A stretch of 46,733 nucleotides of DNA from IMG/VR virus record IMGVR_UViG_3300006139_000008; one strand, given 5' to 3'. The notes under the pieces were generated by a model that was not told the DNA's origin, ran no database searches, and saw only the letters and a list, made by a program, of their open reading frames with translations. Below are positions 8,639 to 18,108 of the stretch, piece by piece (position 1 is the first letter of the stretch; the number at the start of each line of letters is the position of its first letter). This DNA comes from a virus. Lineage: Duplodnaviria > Heunggongvirae > Uroviricota > Caudoviricetes. The translations under genes and the position numbers were made by a program.

Positions 8639-9391
8639 ATGAACGAAATTTTGAATCAACACAAGAATACTATTACAACTCTTGAAATTGCTGAAATGAT
8701 GGAAATATCACATAAGACAATTTTAAGAAAAATTGAAGGGTCAAAGGATCGCCGTGGTTACATACAAATTTTAACTGAGCACCAAATGGTGCCGAGTGAT
8801 TATTTTATTGCTTCTATATATAAAGACTCATCTGGAAAAGAAAACAAATGCTATCTCGTTACAAAACTTGGATGTGATTTTCTCGCTAATAAGTTTACTG
8901 GAGAGAAGGGTGTTTTATTTACTGCAAAATATGTAAAACGATTTGATGAAATGGAACAGGAACTTAAAAATCCATATAAACTTCCCACTACATATAAAGA
9001 AGCATTGGTTCAATTACTCGAAAAAGTTGAAGAAAACGAAAAACTCATTGAAGAAAATAATCATAAACAGGAAGTTATAAATGGTTTTACAGATGATGTT
9101 GATATTTATAAAAAACGTGTAATTATAAATCGCATATGTAAACGAAGATCTGGAAATTACGCAAATAGATATAAGGAATTATACAAGTGTTTTAGAGAAA
9201 CTTTTCACATTGATTTAGAGGCAAGATGTGAAGGATACAATTTAAAGCAAATTAAAAAGAAAGACCAGCTTACTACTATTGCTTATGCAGAAAAATTTGG
9301 ACATATAGACGATTTATATTCTTGTTGTGTCAAATTATATGAAACAGAAGTTAATGAAATTATTGAAGAATTGAAAGCAATTCAAAATTGA
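8639..9391 (+). CDS. Rha-family phage regulatory/antirepressor protein
   Basis: ITTLEIAEMMEISHKTILRKI...CYLVTKLGCDFLANKFTGEKGVLFTAKYVKRFDEME, then LPTTYKEALVQL. Confidence 0.85.
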   Translation: MNEILNQHKNTITTLEIAEMMEISHKTILRKIEGSKDRRGYIQILTEHQMVPSDYFIASIYKDSSGKENKCYLVTKLGCDFLANKFTGEKGVLFTAKYVKRFDEMEQELKNPYKLPTTYKEALVQLLEKVEENEKLIEENNHKQEVINGFTDDVDIYKKRVIINRICKRRSGNYANRYKELYKCFRETFHIDLEARCEGYNLKQIKKKDQLTTIAYAEKFGHIDDLYSCCVKLYETEVNEIIEELKAIQN

Positions 9392-9500: not shown

Positions 9501-10535
9501 GTGATAAATGTGGACGGTAAAAATGCAAAACGCAGCGAAGATATAACGGATGAAATGTGGTCAGAAGTTTTGGAATTTAATAGAAATATGGTTCAAGAAT
9601 ATTTAGATAATCAGACTGAACTTGCTGCAAAATCAAAAATTGCTTACAAATCTGGATTACGAATATTTTTCTATTGGGTTAAACAAAATCTTAACAATAA
9701 AAGTTTTCTTGACATAAAAAAGAAAGAATATGTAAGATATCTGAATTGGATTACAAACAGAGGCTTATCTGATTCTGCTATCAAATTTAAAAAGTCAAGT
9801 GTTAGCTCATTTTGTAATTATGTAATGATGATGTATGAAGAGGAATATCCTACGTTCCGCAATTTCACAGTCGGATTAAAAGTAGTAAAAACGGGAAATG
9901 TATACCCAAAAGAACCGCTTACGCCAGATGAATATATTATGCTCTGTGAAGAATTAGAGAAACGTGAAGAATGGCAAAAATTAGCTTACTTGGTTTTTAC
10001 ATATTCAACTGGATGTAGACGTGCCGAATCAAGACAACTTTTAAAAGAAGTTATTGATTATCCAGCTAAAGAGAGAAAAATTAAAATTGTTGATGAAGAT
10101 GGAAATGAAAAAGAGGCAATTTCAAAATCTTATCAAACTCATATAATTCGTTGCAAAGGTGCATCCGTTGTTGGTAAGCCAAGAAAACTGAAATTTGGCG
10201 AAGATGCTATGTCATGGATGAAAAAATGGTTAGAAGTTCGTGGTGAAGATGATTGTCCCTATATGTTTGTCGTAAAATATAAAAATGGTAAAACTAGACA
10301 AGTAGGTGAAGGTACTTTTAATGGTTGGTGTGAAAAATTATTTGCAAAAATCATTGGGAGACGCTGCCATCCACATCAGTTCCGAGAATCGCGCGCAACT
10401 AACTTAGTAGTTTACGAACATAAATCTGCTGAGGTTGCACAAAAATTGTTAGGTCATAATGATGTAAGTACCACCAAGAATCATTATATTATTCGCAATG
10501 ATGAAATTGACGAATCTGATGAAGCATTTGTCTAA
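9501..10535 (+). CDS. Tyrosine recombinase/integrase-family protein
   Basis: TGCRRAE (Arg), HPHQFRES (H-x-x-R), LLGH...TTKNHY (His, catalytic Tyr); N-terminal core-binding domain. Confidence 0.92.
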   Translation: MINVDGKNAKRSEDITDEMWSEVLEFNRNMVQEYLDNQTELAAKSKIAYKSGLRIFFYWVKQNLNNKSFLDIKKKEYVRYLNWITNRGLSDSAIKFKKSSVSSFCNYVMMMYEEEYPTFRNFTVGLKVVKTGNVYPKEPLTPDEYIMLCEELEKREEWQKLAYLVFTYSTGCRRAESRQLLKEVIDYPAKERKIKIVDEDGNEKEAISKSYQTHIIRCKGASVVGKPRKLKFGEDAMSWMKKWLEVRGEDDCPYMFVVKYKNGKTRQVGEGTFNGWCEKLFAKIIGRRCHPHQFRESRATNLVVYEHKSAEVAQKLLGHNDVSTTKNHYIIRNDEIDESDEAFV

Positions 10536-12749: not shown

Positions 12750-13739
12750 TTAAATGTTGGTTATTATATTGTCCTGAAATTTCAATTCACCTATTTCAAT
12801 TTCTCCAATAAAGTTCTTTACAAAATTAGGTCTTATGACAAAGCATATTTCTGAGATATCCTTTAAATATTTCTGAGGCATACTATCATATGTTATTGGA
12901 ATAACAATTTCTTCATAATCCTTACCTATAGTGAATGTTTGTTCGTAAAATTTAAACAAATTATCACCACACTTAAATTCAATTGTTATCTTTTGAATAG
13001 ATTCGTTTTCACTTCTGCATTTGCAATAAAATATACTATTAGGGGTTATAGTACTCCAATCCTTATGTGGTACAAACTGATAAACACAACTAATAAAATT
13101 ACTTGGAATAGGGTAAAAATCATTTGCTTTAAAATTACAATACATTTTATGAAAACTGTTATCTGATTCTAGTCTTACCGCATCTGGATCACCATTTTGC
13201 GCCACACAAATAATATTTGCATCTCTAAAATTAAATCCATAATTTTCACTTACATATATTTTAACATTTTCTGTAAACTGTTTTATTTTATCAAACAATT
13301 CATGCTCTTGCATAAAATTTAATCTTGGAATTATTTGCTTTTCTACTAACTTATATTCATAGAGTTTTTTGAATAAATCTTCTGCATCAATTAATATGAT
13401 ACTTTGTATTATCTTTAATGGAGTATCATTTAAAACGCCATAATCTAACGGTGGTACAATAATTGGGAAAATATTATCTTTAAATGCCCAGGCAGCACCC
13501 ATTTCCATAATACAAAATTTACTGTTAATATAATTTTGTGTAATTAGAAAAATTACAATTTCTGAATCGTGAAGATTATCTTTGATACTCTTAATAAAAT
13601 CCTCACCAACTCTTAACGCATTATCCATAGATGTACAAAATATCTCATCATAATCAATATGAAATCCTTGTGTAAGCAAATCAACAAACATCAGCACTAA
13701 ATCTCTATCTTTTGAAGAATGACTTATAAAAATTTTCAT
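12750..13739 (-). CDS. TIR-domain protein with C-terminal beta-rich, carbohydrate-binding-like domain (start ATG 13739)
   Basis: MKIFISHSSKD...IVIFLITQNYINSKFCIMEMGAAW is a TIR fold with the conserved Glu; GAAAGGA SD; TG-TTATAAT promoter-like sequence upstream. Confidence 0.8.
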   Translation of the reverse strand: MKIFISHSSKDRDLVLMFVDLLTQGFHIDYDEIFCTSMDNALRVGEDFIKSIKDNLHDSEIVIFLITQNYINSKFCIMEMGAAWAFKDNIFPIIVPPLDYGVLNDTPLKIIQSIILIDAEDLFKKLYEYKLVEKQIIPRLNFMQEHELFDKIKQFTENVKIYVSENYGFNFRDANIICVAQNGDPDAVRLESDNSFHKMYCNFKANDFYPIPSNFISCVYQFVPHKDWSTITPNSIFYCKCRSENESIQKITIEFKCGDNLFKFYEQTFTIGKDYEEIVIPITYDSMPQKYLKDISEICFVIRPNFVKNFIGEIEIGELKFQDNIITNI

Positions 13740-13908
13740 CAGTTTATTCCTTTCATAATTAATATTTAAATTATAACACACAATGGATATATTTTCCATT
13801 ACAAAGTCGTCATTTATGTCGACTCTTTTTGTATTTTCGCCATTTCATACAGGGTAATTACTACCCTCTCCTGCCTTGAATGAATTGTTTCATTGGCAAA
13901 ATTATAAA

Positions 13909-14505
13909 CTAACTATGTCCATCGGAATTACGTTTACCATGAAGAAAGACTAAATATAATATTGTCAATATAAAACATGAAATAAATAGAATCGAATTCA
14001 ACAGTAAGAGGAAATTAAACTTTAATGTTATATACTCAATTACAATTTTGTAACATATAATCAAACAATAAATAATAGGAAATACCCATTTATATAATAT
14101 ATCGACAAAATCACTCATTTTAGGATAATTTGATAAATAATTTCCGCTTTCTCTATCAAATGTTATGTGTTCAATGTTTGATATATCTGATTCTATTGAA
14201 TGAATGCAATTATATTGTTTTTCTATATGTATAGTTGCTTGATAATATCTCATTGTCAAATACAATAGTATTAGCCATAAGAAACTTTGTATTATAGACA
14301 TTTGATTTGATATATCAATCTCATATTGTTTTTGAACAATACCTATAATTAAATATGAAATACTATCTGGTGATAATGCAAATAAAAATTGTAAAGTCAT
14401 CACAAGAAAAACCATTACAAAGAAACGATTTCTTTGAATAATGGTTTCTTTTATTATAGAAAATGTCTCTTTGTAATGGTCATATAGCAACTCTGTTTTA
14501 TCCAT
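13909..14505 (-). CDS. Multi-pass (~4 TM) membrane protein, putative defence effector
   Basis: Four hydrophobic segments; starts 5 nt after the stop of the upstream TIR gene. Confidence 0.7.
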   Translation of the reverse strand: MDKTELLYDHYKETFSIIKETIIQRNRFFVMVFLVMTLQFLFALSPDSISYLIIGIVQKQYEIDISNQMSIIQSFLWLILLYLTMRYYQATIHIEKQYNCIHSIESDISNIEHITFDRESGNYLSNYPKMSDFVDILYKWVFPIIYCLIICYKIVIEYITLKFNFLLLLNSILFISCFILTILYLVFLHGKRNSDGHS

Positions 14506-14510
14506 AATAT

Positions 14511-14936
14511 TTATGCTTCATTCAATGCCTTAATAATTGCATCCTGCGTAAAACTCATTGCCCATTTAGCTCCTGCCCCCATTAACTCATCTGGAGACTC
14601 ATATGACTTATCTATTTTTACAGCAACAAGTTTATTTTTGTGTTCTTTACTTTTTGCGATTTCAAAGTTAATCCAATTTTTATATCCTATAGCAACATGA
14701 TCTTTGTGCTGTGTATTCGCTTCTTTCCCAACGATCACAAGCGTATATGTAGTAGTATTGATGCGTCTTGTTAAACCAGCTTTAATGGTTGGAATATTAT
14801 TACTTTGAATTTCGTCCGAAGAACAATCATTAAAAACGAAATCCATATTCTTATTTGCGTCCCATGCATCTAAAAGAAATTTATAGTGCTTATCGTTAGT
14901 ATAATCGAATGATACAAATACTTTTTTCTTAGCCAT
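14511..14936 (-). CDS. thsB: ThsB-like TIR protein (DUF1863/MTH538-like)
   Basis: KKVFVSFDY...D...LVIVG...WINFEI...LVAV pattern typical of Thoeris ThsB TIR domains, with the conserved Glu. Confidence 0.75.
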   Translation of the reverse strand: MAKKKVFVSFDYTNDKHYKFLLDAWDANKNMDFVFNDCSSDEIQSNNIPTIKAGLTRRINTTTYTLVIVGKEANTQHKDHVAIGYKNWINFEIAKSKEHKNKLVAVKIDKSYESPDELMGAGAKWAMSFTQDAIIKALNEA

Positions 14937-15046
14937 GTATATATAGCCCCTTTCTTTTCAAATTATATTTTTAATCTTACTACCATATTTAGTATAAGTC
15001 AATAATAATTTGGCATAATATGGTATATATTTGGAGGTATTGTTAC

Positions 15047-15175
15047 ATGAAATGTAAACACGAATGGGCTGAATTAAATCGTTATTATTATTTAGATTAT
15101 AATGGTTATAGAGTTCTAAAAATAACATATCATTGCAAAAAATGTAACAAGAAAGAAATTAAAAAGTATTTTTAA
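15047..15175 (+). CDS. Small putative Zn-finger protein (42 aa)
   Basis: Not in track. GGAGGT SD; MKCKHEW...YHCKKCNKKEIKKYF (CxH...CxxC). Confidence 0.65.
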   Translation: MKCKHEWAELNRYYYLDYNGYRVLKITYHCKKCNKKEIKKYF

Positions 15176-15184
15176 AATATTTCA

Positions 15185-15257
15185 CTGGATATAGGACAAT
15201 TGGTAGTCTGCTGGTTTTGGGAACCAGAAGTTGTAGATTCGAGTCCTGCTATTCAGA
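15185..15257 (+). tRNA. tRNA-Pro (anticodon TGG)
   Basis: CTGGATA/TATTCAG acceptor, CTGGT-TTTGGGA-ACCAG anticodon arm, TTCGAGT T-loop. Confidence 0.85.
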
Positions 15258-15261
15258 TTTC

Positions 15262-15287
15262 AGACAGTCATCACGGCTGTCTTTTTT
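15262..15287 (+). terminator. Terminator-like hairpin after tRNA-Pro
   Basis: AGACAGTC-ATCACG-GCTGTCT followed by TTTTT. Confidence 0.6.
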
Positions 15288-15317: not shown

Positions 15318-16361
15318 ATGGTGCTTATGGCACAAGCAAAATCAAACAGGCGTGTGACTACTACTGCACCGTCTAAAAACACAGAGATTCAGAAAATAAA
15401 ATATTCCAAAGAGGATGAACCAACTTTTTATAAGTGTCCTACTTGCGGAACACCATATAAAAAATTAGATGATAACTTTCCTGCATCTCAAAGCGAGATG
15501 TATGCTGGATGGGATTATCACCTTCCTATATGTAAACGCTGCTTAGATGCAATGTTCTCCCATTATACAGAAGTGTACGGAAATGATGAGGACGCTGCTA
15601 TAAGAAGGATTTGCGAAAAGTTTGATATTTATTATAGTGTTAGTCTTTTGAACGCAAGTAGAAAGATTACAAAGAATCGCTCCAGAATACATACATATGT
15701 ATCTCGTGCAAATTTGAGTCAATATAAAGGCAAAACCTTTGATACAACTCTTGATGAAGAACGCAAGGAAGGTGTTATAGAAACACTTGATGATGTAAAA
15801 GAATCTAAAAAAGCGAAATTAAAGACAGTTAAGTTTTTTGGCACGGGATTTGAAGATGACGATTATGTATTTCTTGAGGATGAGTATTTAGATTGGACAA
15901 CTCGCCACGAATGTAATACAAAGGCACAAGAGGAAGTATTTAAGCAAATATGTTATGCCCAGTTAGATATTCTAAAGGCAAAACGTGCTAGACAGCCTAC
16001 GAAAGACTTGACCAAAACATTACAAGATTTATTGGCAACAGCTAATCTTCAGCCAAAGCAGACTAAGGATAATACTTTAGCAGAACAAAATACGTTTGGG
16101 ACTTTGATTAGAAAGTGGGAAAATGAGCGTCCTATCCCAGAACCAGATGAAGAATGGAAAGATGTAGATGGTATAGCAAAGTATATAACCATATACTTCT
16201 TAGGACATTTGTGTAAAATGATGGGAATCAAAAATTCATATTCTCGTATGTATGAAGCTGAAATGGCAAAATATAAAGTTGAAAAGCCAGAATATGAAGA
16301 TGATGACGAGGCACTTTTTGATGCTGTGTTTGGTGGTGAATTAGATGAACCAGACCAGTAA
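15318..16361 (+). CDS. YonG-like protein upstream of large terminase (possible small subunit)
   Basis: CxxC...CxxC Zn motif (CPTC, CKRC); overlaps the terminase start; SPbeta-like synteny. Confidence 0.6.
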   Translation: MVLMAQAKSNRRVTTTAPSKNTEIQKIKYSKEDEPTFYKCPTCGTPYKKLDDNFPASQSEMYAGWDYHLPICKRCLDAMFSHYTEVYGNDEDAAIRRICEKFDIYYSVSLLNASRKITKNRSRIHTYVSRANLSQYKGKTFDTTLDEERKEGVIETLDDVKESKKAKLKTVKFFGTGFEDDDYVFLEDEYLDWTTRHECNTKAQEEVFKQICYAQLDILKAKRARQPTKDLTKTLQDLLATANLQPKQTKDNTLAEQNTFGTLIRKWENERPIPEPDEEWKDVDGIAKYITIYFLGHLCKMMGIKNSYSRMYEAEMAKYKVEKPEYEDDDEALFDAVFGGELDEPDQ

Positions 16362-18108
16362 AAAGACAGATAAAGAAGTTGCAAATGATAAGTCTGCTAA
16401 AATTATGAATGGTGTTGCTACATGGTGTAGCTTTTATAGAGCCAATCCACATAGATTTGCAAGAGATTATCTTGGGATTACATTAAAATTATTTCAAATA
16501 ATTCTCTTATATATGATGAATGTCAGTAACTACTTCATGTATCTTGCCGCTCGTGGTCAAGGTAAAACGTGGTTGACCGCTCTATTCTGTACTATTCGTT
16601 GCATTTTATACCCTGGGACTAAAATATGTGTAGCATCAAAAAATAGAAATCAGGCAAACGAAGTCCTAGAGAAGATAACTACTGACTTTATGGATAAATC
16701 TGATAATTTGAAATTAGAAATTGAAGATTATTCTGTTGGTCAAAATAAAGCATATATACTTTTTAAGAATGGTTCTTGGATAAAAGTTGTAACTGCATCG
16801 GATTCAGGAAGATCGGCTCGTGCAAATATCTTGATTACTGATGAGTTTAGAATGGTAGACTTAAACGTAATCAATACTGTTCTTAGAAAATTCTTAACAG
16901 CTCCCAGAACTCCAAAATATTTAAGTAAAAAAGAGTATAAGCACTTAGTAGAAAGAAATAAAGAGATATATATGTCGAGTTGCTGGTTCAAGAGCCACTG
17001 GTCTTTTGAAAAGGCAAAAGCTTATTGTGCAAATCTTGTTAATGATACTAAGAAATATTTTATATGTGGACTCCCATATCAAATTTCAATCAAAGAAAGT
17101 TTGTTATCAAGAGAACAAGTTGAAGATGAAATGTCAGAAGCAGATTTTTCCGAAATGGCTTGGGATATGGAAATGGGCTGCCTCTGGTATGGTGATAAAG
17201 ATGGAAGTTTGTTTTCATATGAAGACACTTCTAAAAATCGTGTTTTGAAGAAATGCGTATATCCTGAACATATATCAAGGTTAATTCCAGCAAAAGACAT
17301 AAAAATACCAGAACTCAAATCAAATGAACAAAGAATCATATCTACGGACGTTGCCTTACTTGCTTCTAAAAAGCAAAATAACGATGCCGCTTCTATTTTT
17401 ATCAATAGTGCAATTCCAACAAACAATCAAAAGTATATTGGGAATATGATTTATACAGAAAACCATGAAGGATTAAATACCGATGAATTGGCTCTAATTA
17501 TTCGTAGATATTTTGATATGTATAAATGTACTTATATCGCTCTTGATGTTAAGGGTATTGGTCTTGGTGTTTATGATTGTTTAATCAAAGATATGTATGA
17601 CCCGATTATGGGTAAAACATATGGGGCTTTAAGTTGCTGTAATGACAAAGTATATGCAGATAGATGTAAGGTTCAAAATGCTCCAAAAGTAATCTGGGCA
17701 ATACAAGCTACTGCTCAATTTAACAATGATATGTATCTGAGTTTAAGAGAAGGTTTTCGCCAGCATAAAATTAATTTGCTCATAAATGAATTTGAAGCAG
17801 AGGAAATTTTAAAAGATACTCGTGGATATAATTCTTTACAAGCAAGTGATAAAACATTATTGCAGTTACCATATATTCACACTACCCTACTTATCAACGA
17901 ATTAATCAATCTTGAATACGAGGCAAAGGGGGTAAATATTAAAGTCTATGAAAAATCTGGTATGAGAAAAGACCGTGTATCAAGTGTTGGTTACAATTAT
18001 TGGGTTCAGTGTCAATTAGAAACACGTTTGAAAAAACCTAATAACTCTCCAACCAACGTCTCCTCCCTCACTGCTCTCGCACGAAAACCAAAATTATATT
18101 CACATTAG
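16345..18108 (+). CDS. terL: Terminase large subunit (YonF-like)
   Basis: Walker A AARGQGKT, Walker B ILITDE; C-terminal RNase H-like nuclease (STDVA...KDRVSS). Confidence 0.92.
   Translation: MNQTSKKTDKEVANDKSAKIMNGVATWCSFYRANPHRFARDYLGITLKLFQIILLYMMNVSNYFMYLAARGQGKTWLTALFCTIRCILYPGTKICVASKNRNQANEVLEKITTDFMDKSDNLKLEIEDYSVGQNKAYILFKNGSWIKVVTASDSGRSARANILITDEFRMVDLNVINTVLRKFLTAPRTPKYLSKKEYKHLVERNKEIYMSSCWFKSHWSFEKAKAYCANLVNDTKKYFICGLPYQISIKESLLSREQVEDEMSEADFSEMAWDMEMGCLWYGDKDGSLFSYEDTSKNRVLKKCVYPEHISRLIPAKDIKIPELKSNEQRIISTDVALLASKKQNNDAASIFINSAIPTNNQKYIGNMIYTENHEGLNTDELALIIRRYFDMYKCTYIALDVKGIGLGVYDCLIKDMYDPIMGKTYGALSCCNDKVYADRCKVQNAPKVIWAIQATAQFNNDMYLSLREGFRQHKINLLINEFEAEEILKDTRGYNSLQASDKTLLQLPYIHTTLLINELINLEYEAKGVNIKVYEKSGMRKDRVSSVGYNYWVQCQLETRLKKPNNSPTNVSSLTALARKPKLYSH

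Follow-up and report, generated by a model that had tools for sequence, protein, structure and literature searches.

A ThsB-type TIR and a four-helix membrane protein form a conserved gene pair in an SPbeta-like gut phage: a predicted '4TM' Thoeris-type module

The stretch of DNA analysed here, called the window, comprises the 46,733 nucleotides of the viral record IMGVR_UViG_3300006139_000008 (Caudoviricetes). Three consecutive genes occupy its minus strand between 12750 and 14936, and every other large open reading frame lies on the plus strand. G+C content is lower in this minus-strand island (0.25-0.27) than elsewhere in the region, and its GC skew is inverted. The features of the island and its surroundings are as follows.

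8639-9391, plus strand: Rha-family regulator, next to the tyrosine recombinase
9501-10535, plus strand: tyrosine recombinase (Phage_integrase, 2.9e-18; SAM-like N-terminal domain)
12750..13799, minus strand: neighbouring SpbK-like TIR protein, 349 aa (Pfam TIR_2, PADLOC spbK, PDB 9phb)
13852..13866, minus strand: short hairpin GGGTA-GTAAT-TACCC, 43 nt past the effector stop codon
13909..14505, minus strand: 4TM protein, 198 aa, a four-helix membrane protein and predicted signal-gated effector (AF2, hydropathy, conservation)
14511..14936, minus strand: thsB, a minimal ThsB-type TIR of 141 aa and predicted signal-producing enzyme (Pfam PF08937, PADLOC ThsB1)
14974..15002, minus strand: promoter-like site upstream of thsB, TTGACT-17 nt-TAAGAT (sigma-70-like, 9 of 12 matches)
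15020-15175, plus strand: small open reading frame with two CxxC pairs (zinc-ribbon-like), between island and tRNA
15185-15257, plus strand: tRNA-Pro(UGG)
15262-15282, plus strand: terminator-like hairpin directly after tRNA-Pro
15318-16361, plus strand: YonG-like gene
16345-18108, plus strand: large terminase (Terminase_6N)

The pair formed by thsB and the 4TM gene had been described in an earlier note as a two-gene antisense operon with a 5-nt gap, inserted just before the terminase region. Its coordinates are exact: the TAA stop codon of thsB ends at 14511 and the effector ATG stands at 14505, leaving the 5 nt ATATT between them, and both genes are antisense to the large open reading frames except that at 12750-13799. 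The latter, a third antisense gene that did not figure in that account, lies 109 nt beyond the effector gene. The placement is also right, since the plus-strand YonG-like gene and then the large terminase follow downstream. As read from the sequence, thsB has a good ribosome-binding site, GAAAGGGG, about 8 nt before its ATG and past the promoter-like site. The promoter-like site is weak, because such sites are no more numerous in the region than in its shuffles. The hairpin at the other end has no T-run and is therefore not a canonical terminator; the terminator scan lists none there. It marks the downstream edge of a mobile two-gene module.

The large terminase is 48% identical to TerL of the Bacillus SPbeta-group phages, and sister contigs encode members of the YonB, YonD, YonG, YonJ and YomX families. 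The carrier is therefore an SPbeta-like phage, and the view that a phage carries the pair holds, with the temperate SPbeta group as its relatives. Public sequencing runs that contain the window sequence are mouse gut metagenomes. The tyrosine recombinase could be the phage integrase or an invertase. A 42-aa version of the small open reading frame next to the island is called at the same place in three sister phages (L013-L015). Genes for tRNA-Pro that are ~79% identical occur in the large Bacillus phages BCU4 and MarvelLand, and searches of phage databases with the island DNA and the membrane protein gave tRNA-Pro only, or nothing.

The third antisense gene encodes a 349-aa protein with an SpbK-like TIR at its N-terminus, as indicated by matches to Pfam TIR_2 (4.9e-13), PADLOC spbK (5.3e-21) and the SpbK structure PDB 9phb (3.8e-13), with its glutamate in the motif CIMEMGAAW; the C-terminal half matches nothing. 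SpbK is known as a host defence against SPbeta, which makes it curious to find an SpbK-like TIR in a phage of the SPbeta-like kind. The gene is present in one of the five contexts that hold the identical pair (L014 only). A conserved three-gene system was considered and rejected, as the 349-aa protein and a 382-aa TIR protein that accompanies the pair in another locus (L007) are unrelated beyond their fold. The SpbK-like gene is treated here as a separate neighbour, at most an optional second sensor, outside the conserved pair.

The 141-aa product of thsB matches Pfam PF08937 (E 3.8e-12; 46.9 bits against a cutoff of 21.2) and the PADLOC model ThsB1 (2.2e-13). The motif NWINFEI contains a glutamate, E92, that aligns with the one in the YEI motif of ThsB from B. 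cereus (PDB 9b7d, 6lhy), which we take to be the catalytic residue; 16 partner TIRs from a range of loci all have this glutamate. The Pfam and PADLOC matches and the alignment of E92 bear out the earlier description of the protein as a ThsB-like TIR. Its best sequence match in the PDB is 8v6t (E 1e-3), presumably a type II ThsB. The protein is a bare TIR domain with no obvious sensor part.

The partner is predicted by AF2 to be all-helical (36-sequence alignment; pLDDT 85.2, pTM 0.77), and its hydropathy profile contains three strong hydrophobic segments and one weaker. The four transmembrane helices are TM1 at ~28-45, TM2 at 67-86, TM3 at 138-159 and TM4 at 165-188. The N-terminal helix (residues 1-27), the stretch between TM2 and TM3 (residues 87-137) and a basic C-terminal tail are on the same side. 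The first two of these form a conserved cytoplasmic module. In a diverse 41-member alignment (A2), 17 columns reach 90% conservation or more, and 13 of them lie in this module. Fourteen residues are invariant in 36 members (Y8, D9, H10, K12, F29, Y87, Q89, Y98, E105, R118, E119, Y123, P128 and Y138), and the recurrent motifs are LYDHYK near the N-terminus and RYYQ...IERQY and FDRE..Y..YP between TM2 and TM3.

A search of 5.8 billion proteins gave 116 near relatives of the 4TM protein. A profile search extended the family to 879 clusters at 50% identity with E <= 0.001, among them 295 with E <= 1e-30, and nearly all of these are stand-alone proteins of ~200 aa. One matching protein of 2229 aa (P0126) aligns with the effector profile in 42 separate stretches, every one of them to the RYYQ...IERQY helix at profile positions 83-110, and is probably an artefact of repeats or coiled coil.

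The window protein has nothing above threshold in Pfam, PADLOC or NCBIfam. It is small and nearly all membrane, and matches no SIR2, SLOG, Macro, caspase or nuclease model in these collections, as the earlier note had said of it. Among the 77 family members scanned, there was no match to SLATT, DUF4231, DUF2270, DUF6650, Macro or SLOG. Used as a profile against PDB sequences, the 4TM alignment A1 had no match up to E 10, and Foldseek of the model against the PDB gave nothing at E up to 0.001. A wide VIA-align search with the model returned generic helical bundles only, with Z <= 10.6, below the level that is meaningful for helical proteins. In the atlas fold search, TM-scores normalised by query were all below 0.5. 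The top matches in AlphaFold-DB clusters, with TM-scores of 0.7-0.89, are uncharacterised proteins.

The nearest approach to a named family is Pfam PF24838, 8xMP, described as 'RipA family octameric membrane protein'. Seven of 36 close members match it with E 1e-5 to 4e-4 over almost the whole model (profile positions 3-135 of 136), all below the gathering cutoff of 30 bits (best close member, 26.8 bits). The window protein and the 41 diverse members do not match it. A feature search of the protein atlas gave a cosine of 0.78 to an 8xMP cluster, and no paper on the 8xMP/PF24838 family was found in the literature. Judged by sequence comparison, the 4TM family appears to match no named family detectably and to have no Pfam, NCBIfam or PADLOC model of its own, although it may be very remote kin of SLATT or 8xMP.

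Relatives of the 4TM protein are encoded in 54 retrieved loci, of which the first 51 were scanned by tblastn. A ThsB of ~141 aa is encoded directly beside the 4TM gene in 45 of the 51, usually upstream and within ~15 nt. These loci belong to phages, plasmids and chromosomes; the two genes, proposed in the earlier note as one system, do co-occur in other genomes. The association is not due to chance, and it also holds for effectors 26-41% identical to that of the window, in unrelated neighbourhoods. Two general marks of a Thoeris system are thus present: a ThsB-type TIR with the catalytic glutamate in the window, and a conserved, adjacent and co-oriented effector gene (5 nt away in the window). 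The TIR is consistently more conserved than the effector, for example 82% versus 43% in one locus (L037).

The settings of the pair are varied. On a 460-kb contig of JGI 3300011815 (L001), the TIR is 88% and the effector 57% identical to those of the window; the pair is near a YonG-like gene and a gene with a match to RdRP (PF05183), and the contig may be a jumbo SPbeta-like phage. Elsewhere, the pair is part of a polysaccharide locus that also encodes the 382-aa TIR protein (L007), is carried by a plasmid or ICE with TraG, ParDE and a restriction-modification system (L009), and stands beside a DpnII-type restriction enzyme (L010-12) or beside Fic (L018-21). Chromosomes and MAGs with the pair come from Blautia producta, Butyrivibrio, Lawsonibacter, Lachnospiraceae, Selenomonadales, Prevotella and Carnobacterium. 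Two loci have two TIRs around one 4TM gene (L040, L041), and one distant family member is without any TIR (L023).

The identical pair is found at the same site of related phages followed by different downstream genes (L013-L017), and the two genes are therefore a mobile unit. Contigs ~99% identical to the window occur in metatranscriptomes (four libraries from three studies) and cover 13866 to ~14970, just the pair. Contigs from other samples leave the window sequence at 13866-13882 and continue into unrelated sequence. The ends of the RNA-library contigs independently mark the downstream boundary of the module. As a sign of its transcription these contigs are a weak hint, since assembled contigs reveal neither strandedness nor carry-over of DNA. 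No RNA-library contig covers the 349-aa TIR gene or the terminase genes, but this is not a sign that they are silent, as flanking sequence varies from sample to sample and rare forms are lost from contigs.

The position of the module in phages, at a fixed site adjoining the packaging genes, is what would be expected if the pair served the phage itself, in lysis timing or membrane superinfection exclusion, or were an addiction cassette akin to a toxin-antitoxin pair. The effector is holin-like in size, and one member of the family has a very weak holin match (E 0.96). The pair is found equally outside phages, however, where a plasmid or ICE and chromosomes carry it next to genes for restriction, toxin-antitoxin systems and Fic. 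In the phage it is oriented against the phage transcription units, and ThsB-type TIRs are so far known from defence only. A role outside defence is accordingly given very little credence.

A subclade of 4TM proteins 72-73% identical to the window effector has no ThsB. Its genes are followed, at gaps of 3-19 nt, by a gene for a 403-409-aa DUF4062 protein, and such operons are present in two different neighbourhoods (L003-6 and L053-54; for example L003:6001-7812 and L053:4001-5810). A Lachnospiraceae MAG combines both kinds of partner in one tight operon, ThsB-4TM-ThsB-DUF4062 (L041:2574-5090). The DUF4062 protein of L003 has a weak CheC-like match at its C-terminus (E 5e-4). When compared as a profile, the ThsB alignment showed no similarity to the DUF4062 protein, so the link of DUF4062 to TIR rests on the name of PDB entry 10wc, 'KpSwz TIR/DUF4062', and on two preprints, which present DUF4062 (also NIR) as a TIR-like NADase, so far characterised as an NAD+-depleting effector (10.64898/2026.05.01.722283, 10.64898/2026.09.04.749371). 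One of the two speculates that some NIR copies might make signals.

The configuration has been catalogued before. Table S1 of Yirmiya et al. 2025 (bioRxiv 10.64898/2025.12.03.692087) contains a putative effector class '4TM' with 34 TIRs, all in TIR cluster 2727267812, none of which was among those chosen for experiments; the main text does not mention '4TM'. One entry of the table, ga0080702_100003420, has a TIR identical to residues 3-140 of the window ThsB (138 residues). The window pair has what defines the class, a TIR of cluster 2727267812 next to a protein with four transmembrane helices (AF2, hydropathy), and at the level of the pair there is no difference; some entries of Table S1 likewise have two TIRs for one effector gene. 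The earlier note had put the pair forward as a candidate new Thoeris-type system, and this claim to novelty does not hold, since Table S1 already has the exact pair among its predicted configurations, as '4TM'. Through this class, the pair largely matches a described system. The function of the class is a prediction, and a search of the literature later than December 2025 found none that puts a 4TM Thoeris to the test. The preprint lists the class without treating the effector family, its carriage by phages or the DUF4062 partners.

A TIR signal read by a small, nearly all-membrane effector had further been regarded as a different architecture. This does not stand either, as the general idea is experimentally established. 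The same preprint validates seven new Thoeris types, several with membrane-only effectors: DUF2270 in type V, SLATT in type VII and an ion channel in type X (10.64898/2025.12.03.692087). The type V effector, ThsF, has three transmembrane helices, is predicted to form a ring oligomer and responds to 3'cADPR. It resembles the window effector in being nearly all membrane, with a predicted ring-like homo-oligomer and a proposed ligand pocket between protomers. In contrast, the type V TIR is in a different cluster, and the window effector has no match to PF10028, the fold comparison with DUF2270 giving a weak TM-score of 0.35. In type II, the TIR signal His-ADPR activates a membrane-disrupting TM-Macro effector. 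The disruption of membranes is a likeness by proposal, whereas the window effector has no Macro domain (no match at E up to 1 in Pfam and PADLOC) and its putative sensing part is ~75 residues of helix plus loop. SIR2 and SLOG, the marks of type I, have no match in the partner or among the annotated or called neighbours of the pair in the window and the retrieved loci. Effectors of CBASS, including S-2TM and S-4TM, gave no PADLOC match with the window protein at E up to 1, and the PADLOC CBASS effector models gave none with two 4TM relatives at E up to 0.01.

Among the validated types, type VII is also close to the window pair. Its SLATT effector, ThsH, responds to canonical cADPR, and cluster 2727267812 includes the TIR of the B. 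licheniformis type VII system, which is triggered specifically by this molecule (10.64898/2025.12.03.692087). Like the window pair, type VII is a two-gene operon with a TIR of the same sequence cluster and a small membrane effector that is predicted to oligomerise. A related arrangement is found in the temperate Staphylococcus phage SN8 (L052, NC_055020.1 23619-24457), where a ThsB TIR 36% identical to that of the window is paired with a DUF4231/SLATT_1 protein. That pair is in the lysogeny module, between regulators and integrase, and is matched in 22 Staphylococcus phage records; it has the appearance of a Thoeris system akin to type VII that is spread among temperate phages of staphylococci.

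These relationships raise the question of whether the 4TM protein is itself a very divergent SLATT-type effector, in which case the pair would be a type VII Thoeris and not a separate class. The shared TIR cluster, the partner of the SN8 ThsB and weak fold matches to DUF4231 (TM-score 0.47), SLATT (0.35) and DUF2270 (0.35) point in this direction. The type VII SLATT effector, however, has two transmembrane helices and the window effector four, and neither the window protein (E up to 1) nor the 77 members match Pfam SLATT or DUF4231. Profile comparison with the SN8 SLATT protein (hhalign) gave a probability of 0.6%, and Yirmiya et al. list '4TM' and 'SLATT' separately. On balance, a disguised SLATT protein is improbable, although the weak fold matches would be consistent with very remote kinship.

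A model of four copies of the 4TM protein scored 0.53, against 0.00 for the best control, with a partner pLDDT of at least 76 and runs that agree in at least 80% of contacts. Among proteins of known structure, 20 of 30 solved as pairs of one chain attained this mark, as did 1 of 23 solved as single chains; the calibration is only rough here, because a custom alignment and four copies were used. One face of the modelled protomer consists of residues 1-19, 30-44 and 108-141, and the opposing face of residues 1-17, 68-107 and 165-187. The model supports a head-to-tail arrangement that might close into a ring or extend. The closest contacts between protomers include those of residue 8 with 10, 12 with 9, 118 with 10 and 26 with 86, and Y8, D9, H10, K12, R86 and R118 are among the residues involved. 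The model thus brings together invariant polar residues of two adjacent protomers at the cytoplasmic face. This interface mirrors the pockets proposed between protomers of ThsF, ThsG and ThsH by Yirmiya et al.; those pockets are described as positively charged, whereas the cytoplasmic part of the window copy is net acidic.

The reading preferred here, and held to be likely, is that the pair is a Thoeris-type abortive-infection module, in which a TIR-made, ADPR-derived signal switches a 4TM oligomer to a membrane-damaging state. As antisense cargo (a 'moron') of an SPbeta-like mouse-gut phage, the module would act once its ThsB TIR has detected an invading phage and turned NAD+ into a signal derived from ADP-ribose. 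The signal would bind the cytoplasmic module of the 4TM protein (N-terminal helix plus TM2-TM3 loop), probably where neighbouring protomers meet. The head-to-tail oligomer would then breach or depolarise the membrane, so that the infected cell and with it the competing phage are stopped; such an anti-phage activity would protect the lysogen. The Thoeris-type identity of the pair is well supported by its context. As for the signal, canonical cADPR is the best guess, a tentative one, because the clustering of Yirmiya et al. groups the window TIR with the Bacillus type VII TIRs. Points against the preferred reading are that the effector matches no known ligand-binding domain and no solved structure, that its cytoplasmic part is net acidic, that the promoter-like site is no better than chance, that one distant member occurs without a TIR (L023) and that a subclade is joined to DUF4062 proteins.

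The roles of the two proteins could also be reversed, with the membrane protein as sensor or anchor, for example of the membrane perturbation at phage entry, and the TIR as an effector that depletes NAD+ without any diffusible signal. A TIR that is a bare domain would fit this, as would the pairing of the same membrane family with DUF4062/NIR proteins, so far characterised only as NAD+-depleting. Single-domain ThsBs, on the other hand, are the sensors of type I Thoeris, and the conservation of the membrane protein is concentrated on its cytoplasmic and not its outer face. TIRs of the same cluster also belong to a validated signalling system, in which exogenous cADPR alone triggers the toxicity of the effector (10.64898/2025.12.03.692087). 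Reversed roles are considered unlikely, marginally less so than a hidden SLATT protein, and the signal-gated 4TM effector is retained as the preferred reading.

A TIR signal that acts on a membrane oligomer is an ordinary mechanism for the field, and the pair is a reasonable candidate for validation. Only one aspect has not yet been found in the literature, namely that DUF4062/NIR can take the place of ThsB as partner. The shared 4TM partner is a comparative-genomic hint that some DUF4062/NIR proteins may make signals. The wider proposal, that 4TM is a common signal-gated effector for ThsB TIRs and DUF4062/NIR proteins and that the window pair belongs to a further, unnamed Thoeris type, is speculative and rather doubtful.

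If the pair is validated, the Thoeris repertoire would gain one more effector family, and large temperate-type phages of gut Firmicutes would be seen to spread TIR signalling immunity. In the conserved motif of the small, 198-aa effector there would be a compact candidate sensor, new in kind, for ligands of the cADPR type and fused to a membrane pore. If the wider proposal is also true, some NIR domains would be producers of signals, beyond the mere depletion of NAD+, and SPbeta-like gut phages would be spreading a further type of Thoeris.
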